A stretch of DNA of 64,000 nt from Acidobacteriota bacterium (GCA_040755995.1 JBFMAF010000049.1:157519-221518); one strand, 5' to 3'. Shown: positions 49,379-54,991, counted from the stretch's first letter. The notes: a model not told the origin generated them from the sequence alone. Made by a program: numbers and translations.

Positions 49379-52300
49379 ATGATCGGCGTTGTTCTGGCCA
49401 GCCGGTACGAAGTCCTGCGCGAGCTGGGGCGCGGGGGCATGGGGGCGGTCTACGTCGCACGCGATCCGCTGCTGGATCGCGAGGTCGCCGTGAAGGTGCT
49501 GCCGCCGGCCGTTCTCACGGCGGATGCTGCCGACCGGTTCAAGCGTGAGGCGCGGATCGTCGGGAGCATGGACCATCCGTCGATAGTGCCGGTGTATGAC
49601 ATGGGAGAACACGACGGAGCCCTGTTCTTCGTGATGCCGCTGGTCCGAGGCGCAAACATGCGTTCGCTCCTCCACACGCGCGTGCTGCGACTCGGGGAAG
49701 TGATCGAGATCGGTGTACAGGTGGCGGAGGCTCTCGAGTACAGCCACCTGCTCGGCGTCGTCCACCGCGACATCAAGCCTGAGAACATTCTGGTCACACG
49801 CGAGACGCCGGAGGCTCTTCGGGCACGAGTCACCGATTTCGGATTGGCCATGGTGTTCCGAGGTGATCGGCTGACCCGCACGGGCACTCTCGTGGGAACG
49901 GCGGCGTATCTGAGCCCAGAGCAGGTGGCGGGCGATGACGTCGACGCGCGTTCCGACGTCTACTCGCTCGGCACCGTCCTGTACGAATCGGTCGTCGGAC
50001 AGACGCCGTTCACCGGCGACATACACTCGGTTCTCTACCGCATCGTTCACGAAGCTCCCGCTTCGCCGAGGACGATGGGGATCGAGATTCACGAAGAGCT
50101 CGATGCCATCGTGATGCGGTGTCTGGACAAGAGCCGCATGCTGCGGCCGCAGCGCGCGGGCGACCTCGCCGACGCTCTCCGCCGCTACCGCTCGCGCATG
50201 CGCGCAGGCGAGAGCGACCGGACGATTCTCGGGATGCCGCGTGTGAGCGGAGCGAGGCGCGCGCAAGCGCAGCCGCTCATCGGACGCGGCCGGGAGATGG
50301 AGGAGCTGCAGCGGAGGCTCAACTTCGCGATAGCCGGCGAGTGCCAGTTCGTCGTGATCGCCGGCGAGGCCGGGACGGGAAAGAGCAGGTTGCTGGACGA
50401 GATCGAGAAGCTCGCCGGCGCGCGGAAGATACGCGTTCTTCACGGCCGGTTCGTCGAGCGGGACCGTGCGTTCCCATATCAGGGATTCTGCGAAGTGATC
50501 CAGGACCACTTCCGGGCGAAGGCGGCCGGCAGCTGGCCGTCTGCCGCCGATCTGTCGGATCTTGCGCCGGAGCTGGCGGCGGTGTTTCCCGCGCTCTCCG
50601 AGATAGAAGAGATTCGTTCGTCGTCCACCATCCCGTCTCCAGCGGCTGATATCGCGGGGCCGGCGGACCGCAACACCGTGTTCGAGCTTCTCTCGCGAAC
50701 TCTGGCGCGCATCTCGGCGGGCCAGCCGTTGCTGTTGCTGCTGGAGGATTTGCACGCGGCTGACGTGTCGGTTGACGCACTGCAGTACGTAACACGCCGG
50801 CTGGGACCGACCCCGACGCTGATCGTCACTACCTATCGACTGTCGGCTGTGGGCCGCGGGCATCCGCTTCTGCGGCTTCTGGAGAGTTTCAGAGGCGATC
50901 GCCACTTCGCGGAGATCCGGCTCGCGCCCTTGTCGGTTTCCGAGTCCCTCGCATTTCTGGAGGGGATGCTCGGGAGTACCCGCGTGGACCGCGCCCTTGC
51001 AGACAAGATATACGAGGCTGCCGAAGGCAACCCATATTTCACATCCGAGATCGTCCGGACACTGCTGGACTCCGGCCAGATTCTGCAGGCCGAATCGGGA
51101 GCCTGGCGGTGGGTAAGCGGCGACGACGTCCTGGCCCTTCCGCCGACGATTCAGCAGACGGTCGAGAAACGAATCGAAGGGCTGCGGCCGAACCTGAGGG
51201 AGACGCTCTCGGTGGCGTCGATACTCGGCAAGCGATTCGACTTCGATGATCTGATTCTGCTCTCGGGCGCAGGCGCCGAGGCGGAGGACGCCGTTGATGA
51301 GCTGGTGAAAGCCGGCTTCCTCGAGGAAGAGTCGGGCACGCGCGGCGACAAGCTGTCGTTCACCAGTGGAGTCCTTCGCGACGTGTTCTACACGGCCATC
51401 CCGCGCCGCCGGCGACGGGCGCTCCACAGGAGGTACGCAGAGGAGCTGGAGAAACGGAACGCGGGCCGTCTCGAACGCGTCATACCGCAGCTCCTTCACC
51501 ACTACTTCGAGGGGGACGTGAGCGAAAAGGTCGTGGAGTTCGGCCTCCGGTTCGCGAAGAAATCCATGGACGGCTTCAGTCCGGAGAATGCGATGAACGC
51601 GGCCAGGAAGGTTCTTTCCGTGGTGGAGAGCGACGACGAGCCGCGGCCGTCGGTGGAGGCGGAGGCGCGGCTGTGCCTGGGCGCCGCGTCTCGCATGAGC
51701 GGCGACATAGACGGCGCGATCCGCGAGTACTCGACCGCGATCGACCTCCTGCAGACCCAGGACGACCTGCCCAGGACGGCCGCGACGCTGCTGATCGCAG
51801 CCGAGACAGCGTGGGACGGGAGAAGGGTGGACGAGGCCCGGAGGTGGGTGGAGAAGGGGCTGGACGCTGCGCGCAAATGCCGGCAGGTTGCATCGCTGGA
51901 AGGACTCCTGTCGCTGGCCGCTACGCTGGCGAGCCTGCGCGGCGACCTCGCGTTGGCTAAGAGCCACCAGGATGAGCTCGACGGCCTGCGGCCGGCATCG
52001 GAAGTGCGCCATACGGATGTCGCGCCCGGGGGCAGACTGACAGTCGGGCTCTCCTTGGGGTTTCAGCTCACGCATCCCGTGCAGATCGTGCTGGACGAGC
52101 AGGCCGAGGTTCAGGCGAACGTCTTCGAGACGCTTCTGGCAACGGACGTCCGTGGAGCCATCCGGCCCCGGCTCTGCGAGAGCTGGGAAGTGGCGGACGG
52201 CGGGCGGCGAGTGCAGTTGACGCTGCGTCGCGGGATCCGGATGCACGACGGCAATGAGCTCACGCCGCAGGGCGTCAAGACGAGCATAGAGCTGGCGATA

Positions 52301-54991: not shown

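Follow-up and report, generated by a model that had tools for sequence, protein, structure and literature searches.

Domain layout of the 1870-aa protein

The gene described here lies at positions 49379 to 54991 on the plus strand of a 64,000-nucleotide stretch of DNA from an Acidobacteriota bacterium (GCA_040755995.1, JBFMAF010000049.1:157519-221518), hereafter called the window. It is a single open frame with zero internal stops that encodes 1870 aa (P0001), with a GC content at third codon positions of 0.81 and a GC content and codon use like those of the host. Pfam matches and homologous proteins define the order kinase, STAND (signal transduction ATPase having numerous domains) NTPase, arm with tetratricopeptide repeat (TPR)-like helices, and two family-5 solute-binding protein domains (SBP1 and SBP2). 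The domains expected in a preliminary description of this DNA were all recovered in a Pfam scan: Pkinase at aa 10-258 (E 1e-44), AAA_16 at aa 299-483 (E 3e-22; 80.6 bits versus a cut-off of 32.6) and SBP_bac_5, which was matched twice (E 5e-99). TPR_MalT at aa 735-864 scored 33.7 bits, which is under its 45-bit cut-off. From its sequence, the protein is predicted to be cytoplasmic and to join a kinase, an ATP-binding switch and two clamshell domains of transporter type. It belongs to a real, conserved and apparently unstudied variant of the STAND kinases, in which transporter clamshells occupy the sensor slot. The preliminary description knew of no functional study of the tandem-SBP form, and a literature search with subscription journals outside its coverage likewise found no paper on this architecture; the clade tables of a 2026 STAND census (10.64898/2026.01.04.697583, PMC13581612) may include the family.

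The chain begins in the kinase fold and, as described earlier, carries neither a signal peptide nor a transmembrane helix, in that no hydrophobic segment was found by hydropathy (no dedicated predictor was used). The maximum 19-residue Kyte-Doolittle mean is 1.29 in this protein and ranges from 1.18 to 1.82 across 120 family proteins; the membrane helix encoded by the upstream gene, taken as a positive control, reaches 2.69. No such helix lies between the TPR-like and SBP regions, and a membrane receptor is ruled out by this measure.

The Hanks-type RD kinase (aa 1-275; 49379-50203, plus strand) was identified by its motifs, by Pfam and by its fold. Its catalytic motifs are intact (K39, E57, HRDIKPEN and DFG), and the closest solved kinase is PknB 1mru (E 8e-56; Z 31.1, root-mean-square deviation (rmsd) 2.3 over 255 aligned residues, 42% identity). 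R9, L32 and D74 correspond to R10, L33 and D76 of PknB, and T166, T168 and T174 to T171, T173 and T179. R9, L32 and D74 are invariant in all 69 aligned family kinases; in 79 rows of other kinases from the host, the same residues occur in 24, 55 and 36 rows, with gaps at these positions in 30, 12 and 9 rows, respectively. The catalytic residues are retained in nearly all of the 69 members (K39 in 69, E57 in 68, D131 in 68, D153 in 69, and T166 in 63 with Ser in the other 6). L33 and D76 are markers of the back-to-back interface in PknB (PMC13434768), and the substitution L33D abolishes dimer-stimulated autophosphorylation at T171/T173 (10.64898/2026.10.08.757607). By analogy, a kinase that requires dimerization and has no membrane anchor would fit clustering by the STAND core, a mechanism described for MalT (PMC4381067). 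The host genome contains 74 kinase ORFs, this gene included, and a single gene of this family.

The kinase is followed by a variable linker (aa 276-296; 50204-50266, plus strand) with a mean identity of 0.12 and a predicted local distance difference test score (pLDDT) below 50 at aa 285-295. The P-loop NTPase core (aa 297-515; 50267-50923, plus strand), supported by motifs, Pfam and the structural model, contains IGRGRE, GEAGTGKS, LLLLLEDLH and T485-Y-R487. Next comes a helical domain with the motif GNP and then a winged-helix-like unit (aa 516-674; 50924-51400, plus strand), the limits of which were read from predicted secondary structure. The arm and TPR-like helical hairpins (aa 675-876; 51401-52006, plus strand) comprise ten long helices according to Pfam and the models. 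The motif positions reported earlier were all confirmed (GEAGTGKS at 50363-50386, LLLEDLH at 50735-50755 and GNP at 51026-51034), and we take GNP to be the GxP hallmark of STAND proteins. In the model of aa 1-880 (pLDDT 88.7), the linker behind the kinase is loose, and the P-loop domain is followed by a pattern of helical and winged-helix-like units.

Walker A residues G334 and K335 are present in 69 of 69 members and E456 in 66 of 69, and GNP and R303 are near invariant. Of 22 members scanned, all 22 matched TIGR03903, a model of kinase/cyclase fusions, along approximately 410 residues (best E 8e-44). The fold search with the aa 1-880 model returned kinases only and no STAND protein, and a profile search of the PDB gave P-loop matches only; the STAND assignment therefore rests on sequence, namely AAA_16, GNP and TIGR03903. 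NTPases of the SWACOS or PknK type are associated with cyclases and kinases, and here the NTPase is fused to a Ser/Thr kinase. The general STAND mechanism has been described, with PknK named as a STAND kinase (PMC4381067), and SWACOS has been named a classical STAND clade (PMC8195603, PMC13236601). The protein had been called NLR-like, after the nucleotide-binding leucine-rich repeat receptors. This holds for its layout of effector, switch, arm/TPR and sensor, but the NTPase is of the AAA_16, cyclase/kinase-associated type, and in 22 members it matched the antiviral models of PADLOC (2023 library) at the P-loop alone (best E 3e-5).

Family members and the two clamshells

At least 119 homologues have 48-55% identity to the protein over 99-100% of its length, and the named relatives are mostly Acidobacteriota. 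A genome scan with a single sequence as query gave zero matches, whereas a profile scan of species genomes on the NTPase part confirmed 355 relatives, of which 79 loci were kept; each of the 79 comes from a metagenome-assembled genome, and Acidobacteriota groups are named in 69 of the locus titles. Of these loci, 20 are cut by an end, and the full domain order was found in 56 of the 59 uncut ones. The other three end in or after SBP1 and were rejected as SBP1-only forms, in that they continue in another frame. With the TPR-SBP1 region as query, matches were obtained in 24 of 401 genomes of the phylum, with at most three per genome (three candidates at most were scored in each), and with the full-length relative P0128 in 38 of 401 genomes of one class; each tally takes in one unpublished genome (G024 and G558, respectively), on which no other result depends. 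Paralogous copies occur as two double-kinase genes diverging around another kinase (L031:6644-20000), as two copies in tandem (L043:4556-15889) and as two copies that share one 23-kb contig (L119 and L129). In the ESM Atlas, one cluster matched at 0.99, perhaps the protein's own, and the rest scored below 0.9 and serve as leads only.

Among the best 150 representatives at 50% identity, 49 have the order kinase-NTPase-TPR-SBP1-SBP2, 20 contain SBP2 only, 4 contain SBP1 only, and the remainder are mostly fragments. One of the four SBP1-only representatives, P0205, was rejected as a real form, being a partial record that clusters with a member of 1870 aa; the status of the other three is taken from the domain scan alone. 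A closer scan of 22 of the 150, chosen mainly for an odd N-terminus or layout, identified a Trans_reg_C winged helix in place of the kinase in four and a SIR2_2 domain ahead of the kinase in two. The same switch-sensor module thus serves winged-helix and Sir2-kinase outputs besides the kinase. In 42 of the 119 listed homologues, an extra kinase is fused in front. This first kinase (P0003-P0051) has kept its catalytic motifs, the position of D74 is occupied by Ser in all 42 cases, and it is closer to the general kinases of the host than to the family kinase; it is therefore likely a later fusion.

Many members are labelled "ABC transporter substrate-binding protein" in databases, as might be expected if a kinase gene had been joined to ABC-transporter binding proteins by mis-assembly or a chance fusion. 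We consider this explanation practically negligible: full-length homologues exist, the same domain order recurs in hundreds of independent assemblies, and the fused SBPs form a clade of their own. The possibility of a chimeric ORF, raised in the preliminary description, was excluded on these grounds.

SBP1 (aa 881-1372; 52019-53494, plus strand) and SBP2 (aa 1383-1870; 53525-54988, plus strand) are both complete family-5 clamshells according to alignments and the model, and the motifs R.HDG, GSGPF, W.ADY.D and LPLFHE, previously said to be shared by the two, occur once in each. The model of aa 720-1870 has a mean pLDDT of 89.6 and consists of helical hairpins followed by the two clamshells. 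Foldseek searches with the clamshell model gave E-values down to 1e-34 and a template-modelling score by target of 0.86. Compared to MppA, the model deviates by an rmsd of 4.3-4.5 from the open form (4toz) and 5.9 from the liganded form (3o9p), and compared to DppE by 3.9 (open, 8azb) and 6.2 (liganded, 8ay0). The better fit to the open forms suggests that the clefts, predicted to belong to fully folded domains, are not collapsed, contrary to one way in which the earlier interpretation could have failed.

To place the domains, we inferred a FastTree phylogeny of 104 domains and 471 columns, the outgroup of which was confined to 15 of the host's free SBPs and 11 domains taken from five other proteins. 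The 27 SBP1, 27 SBP2 and 24 single domains formed one clade (support 0.999), apart from the free SBPs of the host. SBP1 formed its own clade within it (0.954), and the single domains were dispersed among SBP2. SBP1 and SBP2 are about 30% identical, as compared to 45-49% identity to the query for orthologous domains. The single-SBP forms were also considered as recombinants of SBP1 and SBP2, but in 24 of 25 cases every one of the eight bins scores as SBP2, and these forms are thus whole SBP2 domains. One clamshell clade, the divergence of SBP1 from SBP2 and the SBP2 identity of the single forms would, in the simplest reading of the sequences, reflect a single capture and one old duplication, with SBP1 lost repeatedly. 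P0196 (BTAD-AAA_16 with four SBPs) did not fall within the clade, an indication that a related switch captured SBPs independently. Other fusions with several family-5 SBPs outside the clade are P0262, P0263 and P0253, among which the architectures are a methyl-accepting chemotaxis protein (MCP) signalling domain with two SBPs, a DyP peroxidase with two SBPs, and a Pfam-blank N-terminal region with four SBPs.

We compared the ligand pockets at 29 positions, which were mapped by printed alignments to OppA and MeAmi_SBP and not on coordinates. The pocket residues derive from a docking study (PMC6305025) and from 10.1101/2024.02.22.581678, and about half of the positions lie next to these residues or are further pocket residues of OppA. 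In solved family-5 proteins, small ligands are enclosed between the lobes and a Trp/Asp pair touches the amino group of the ligand (10.1101/2024.02.22.581678); in docking simulations of OppA, Trp416 and Asp419 make this contact (PMC6305025). The equivalent anchors are R1272-W1273-x-x-D1276 in SBP1 and R1769-W1770-x-x-D1773 in SBP2. In domain sets made non-redundant at 60%, Trp and Asp are retained in 86% and 82% of 82 SBP1, in 93% and 85% of 80 SBP2, and in 95% and 95% of 24 single domains. At the position of OppA Arg413, where Arg is also found in the MppA alignment, SBP1 has I, L or F and SBP2 has L, V or A. An Arg is present two residues closer to the Asp, at the position of OppA Gly415, in 87% of SBP1 and 81% of SBP2, as well as in four free SBPs of the host, and an Arg so placed would suit a shorter ligand.

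The anchor core has a mean pairwise identity of 0.73 in SBP1 and SBP2 alike. The side-chain subsites of SBP1 are as conserved as the whole domain (0.41 versus 0.41), and those of SBP2 have diverged much faster (0.22 versus 0.42). On average, 12.8 of the 29 pocket positions are charged in SBP1 versus 5.9 in SBP2, and the charges that face the cleft of SBP1 are E907, E908, E910, D1030, R1106, K1132, R1227 and D1345. By these sequence measures, the two clamshells divide labour, SBP1 having a fixed charged pocket and SBP2 fast-diverging subsites. SBP2, which is the domain kept in single-SBP relatives, is likely to be the main, lineage-tuned sensor, and SBP1 is likely to be a second site, at which the co-signal would be fixed and charged.

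The top solved match of the joint SBP profile is MeAmi_SBP (8UPI; E 1e-71), followed by MppA (E 3e-61). Contrary to how it is annotated, MeAmi_SBP has amino-acid amides as ligands and bound none of the peptides tested (10.1101/2024.02.22.581678), which is a warning against inferring "peptide" from the family name. The proposal that the receptor is switched by peptides or muropeptides is accordingly upheld in part: the receptor-kinase layout and the amino anchor agree with it, but Arg413 is missing and the best solved match is an amide binder, and the sequences give no specific support for muropeptide sensing.

Genomic neighbourhood and defence context

In the window, the gene is surrounded by housekeeping and metabolic genes. 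The preliminary description saw no Opp permease genes nearby, and indeed none of the 15 genomic matches to BPD_transp_1 is located on this contig; an Opp/Dpp-type permease pair is present on another contig of the host genome. No BPD_transp_1 match was found at E 1e-15 among 138 neighbours of relatives, and membership of an Opp operon was ruled out by these positions. A search for a sigma-70-like promoter upstream of the gene gave no match, a result that is uninformative. The upstream gene (47160-49157, plus strand) encodes a degenerate kinase, in which VYLTK, HGALSPVD and NFNF replace the catalytic motifs; the kinase is followed by a membrane helix and a charged helical stalk, and the protein ends in a TonB C-terminal domain. 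It is likely, judging from these features, a pseudokinase-TonB fusion, and it was not seen to recur beside relatives. Further upstream (38277-42085, plus strand) is a split pair of phosphoenolpyruvate (PEP)-utilising enzymes, in which the PPDK_N protein carries a histidine-phosphatase domain.

Apart from other kinases, no conserved neighbour family was found near relatives, and the neighbours hence gave no pointer to a ligand. Other kinases number 21 in 690 kb around relatives, and five carrier genomes with 26.9 Mb together contain 339, so that the flanks are approximately 2.4-fold richer. This is a weak signal (thresholds differ, genomes are related and some neighbours are paralogues). Enzymes for amino acids and peptides were seen among the 138 neighbours, with no control rate, and are not used as evidence. 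In a single case (L045:4486-19601), the family gene lies amid genes whose N-termini suggest pyrimidine breakdown, presumably a dehydrogenase, an aminotransferase and a dihydropyrimidinase-like enzyme.

The flanks of the 79 kinase-type loci (690 kb) were scanned for defence genes, covering 138 of 383 called neighbours (21 kinases were set aside and 224 were unscanned) and 150 of 174 gap ORFs; the latter were included since the codon-based gene calls had missed the AT-shifted Septu pair described below. PADLOC matched 6 of the 138 called neighbours, all by generic domains, and 5 of the 150 gap ORFs, with no control rate. Within this scanned part, Pycsar was the only known defence system found complete, and there was one candidate system besides. 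The Pycsar pair (L058:656-1987, plus strand) consists of an effector with two transmembrane helices and a PycC cyclase, and is located approximately 5.5 kb upstream of the family gene.

The only winged-helix member with readable context, P0128 (10684-15825, plus strand), stands head to head, at a distance of approximately 250 bp, with a Septu pair on the minus strand (L134:7973-10428; PtuA1 E 3e-196, PtuB1 E 4e-60). The GC content is 46-52% for the Septu pair versus 59-62% for the receptor gene, and the pair may be an independent insertion in this one case. Membrane-type sensor kinases are encoded further upstream at the same locus. One of the two SIR2_2 representatives matches the Lamassu LmuA model over residues 8-288 (E 1e-19).

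These observations bear on the possibility that the family members are NLR-type immune receptors, whose clamshells would detect peptides or metabolites of infection or damage, and whose kinase or Sir2 domain would arrest or kill the cell, or whose winged-helix form would turn on defence genes. The SIR2_2 forms, the full Septu pair facing P0128 and the Pycsar pair in L058 speak for such a role, as do the patchy spread across the phylum and the class and the diversification of the SBP2 subsites. On the other hand, a single complete known defence system was found in the scanned part of the flanks of the 79 loci, the NTPases match PADLOC models at the P-loop alone, the gene in the window is host-like in composition and lies amid housekeeping genes, and the Septu pair differs in GC content. 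The innate-immunity role put forward in the preliminary description is thus favoured by rare Sir2 fusions and the Septu neighbour but not by the sparse defence context; we regard it as unlikely, though as second only to signalling.

Proposed function and comparison with known systems

On balance, we lean towards a ligand-gated cytoplasmic signalling kinase with a regulatory output. The ligand would be a small molecule with a free alpha-amino group, such as a short peptide or an amino-acid derivative, the binding of which would close the clamshells. Closure would act through the arm, as in MalT, and release the nucleotide-binding core for ADP/ATP exchange and oligomerization. The kinases would then cluster into an active back-to-back dimer, phosphorylated at T166/T168, with consequences for regulation rather than immunity.

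Several points weigh against this proposal. The pockets were mapped by alignment, the neighbours give no hint of the ligand, and one winged-helix member faces a Septu pair. The predicted template-modelling score (pTM) is 0.56-0.57 in both models (aa 1-880 and aa 720-1870), so that the packing of the SBPs against the switch is of low confidence. In SBP1, large charged residues are found where OppA has small ones, and the cleft could therefore be plugged by internal salt bridges. In the switch, the second acidic residue of Walker B, D457, is replaced by Asn or Glu in 25 of 69 members (Asn in 16 of 69), and two of the 22 chosen representatives (P0248 and P0259) lack the NTPase core yet keep the kinase, winged helix, TPR and SBP2, which suggests that an ATP cycle is not always needed.

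The opposite charges facing the SBP1 cleft, which suffice for internal salt bridges, would also agree with a scheme in which the clamshells grip a partner protein or the protein's own chain end, or in which SBP1 is a plugged spacer that holds the switch shut, with activation by partner proteins, for instance other kinases. SBP2, being low in side-chain specificity, would suit a protein tail bound in a sequence-tolerant way, no neighbours recur except other kinases, and a second kinase is fused in front in 42 of the 119 homologues. However, both domains keep their full length, fold and amino anchor, family-5 pockets bury small ligands between their lobes, and SBP1 has been cleanly lost in many lineages (20 of the best 150 representatives), which argues that it is not a needed brace. 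We find this scheme rather improbable.

The NTPase-less forms and the D457 replacements, together with a TPR stretch that is short for an NLR sensor, could instead mean that the polarity is reversed, with the ligand holding the protein off, or that the switch is vestigial and SBP closure reaches the kinase via the helical scaffold without ATP-driven oligomers. Either variant seems quite improbable, given that Walker A, GNP and R303 hardly vary among members, that the NTPase is conserved like the kinase (mean identity to the query 56% versus 59%) and that the kinase-dimer residues are invariant.

A ligand-gated signalling kinase remains our preferred reading, and it would provide a candidate cytoplasmic input for the very large numbers of kinases, 33-107 per genome, that these uncultured bacteria encode. 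STAND sensors are described as repeat domains, and here a hinged transporter domain occupies the sensor slot. The ligand of a clamshell can be sought in a routine thermal-shift screen, which makes a STAND switch testable with a small molecule, and the architecture could serve as a modular scaffold for linking inputs to outputs, given that kinase, winged-helix and Sir2 outputs have already been exchanged on it in nature. The database label of ABC-transporter component can be corrected for family members. A bolder version, which we hold to be doubtful, is a two-key NLR-like peptide receptor, in which a variable peptide or damage signal at SBP2 and a fixed metabolic co-signal at SBP1 would together drive STAND assembly and one of several exchangeable outputs, namely a kinase, a double kinase, a Sir2-kinase or a transcription activator of defence genes. 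If true, it would be a pattern-recognition receptor for peptides instead of folded phage proteins.

We also compared the protein to systems with related parts. Antiviral STAND proteins (Avs, bNACHT) have mainly TPR, WD40 and FGE-like sensors and recognise phage proteins (10.64898/2026.01.04.697583). They share the effector-NTPase-sensor layout, and Sir2-bearing members, rare here, are a further likeness, but the family shows no match at the level of the whole NTPase and little defence context. The PASTA-type Hanks receptor kinases, including PknB, have the dimer and activation-loop residues in common with the 1870-aa protein, which has no membrane helix and no PASTA domains (NF033483 scores 302 versus 450 bits) and in which the STAND core would do the clustering.

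The family-5 (cluster C) binding proteins MeAmi_SBP (8UPI), MppA, OppA and DppA have the same complete fold and Trp/Asp anchor. Unlike them, the clamshells described here have no export signal, no permease partner and no Arg413, and carry an Arg at the OppA Gly415 position; the insertion before the Trp in MeAmi_SBP is missing. At about 30% identity to solved family-5 proteins, a ligand is not transferable. AmiC is a cytosolic binding-protein receptor and a precedent for a "periplasmic" fold in the cytoplasm (10.1101/2024.02.22.581678). Neither AmiC nor SgrR has a STAND switch or a kinase, and the SgrR model scores 27 versus 476 bits here. SgrR joins an N-terminal helix-turn-helix, which the 1870-aa protein does not have, directly to a family-5 domain and likewise uses the binding fold in the cytoplasm.

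Two further parallels are STAND proteins. PknK of Mycobacterium tuberculosis, together with other STAND kinases of the kinase-AAA_16-TPR type, shares a soluble Hanks kinase, STAND switch, arm and TPR-like repeats with the protein, in which a short TPR region is followed by one or two family-5 clamshells and there is neither a repeat sensor nor a cyclase; the TIGR03903 score is 257 versus a 706-bit cut-off, and PknK was compared by description, not by alignment. MalT of E. coli is likewise a STAND protein gated by a small molecule, with nucleotide-binding, helical and winged-helix domains, arm and sensor (PMC4381067), the helical and winged-helix units being predicted ones here. MalT is a transcription factor that senses maltotriose in a TPR-type sensor, whereas in this family a clamshell of the transporter type takes the place of that sensor and the output is usually a kinase.

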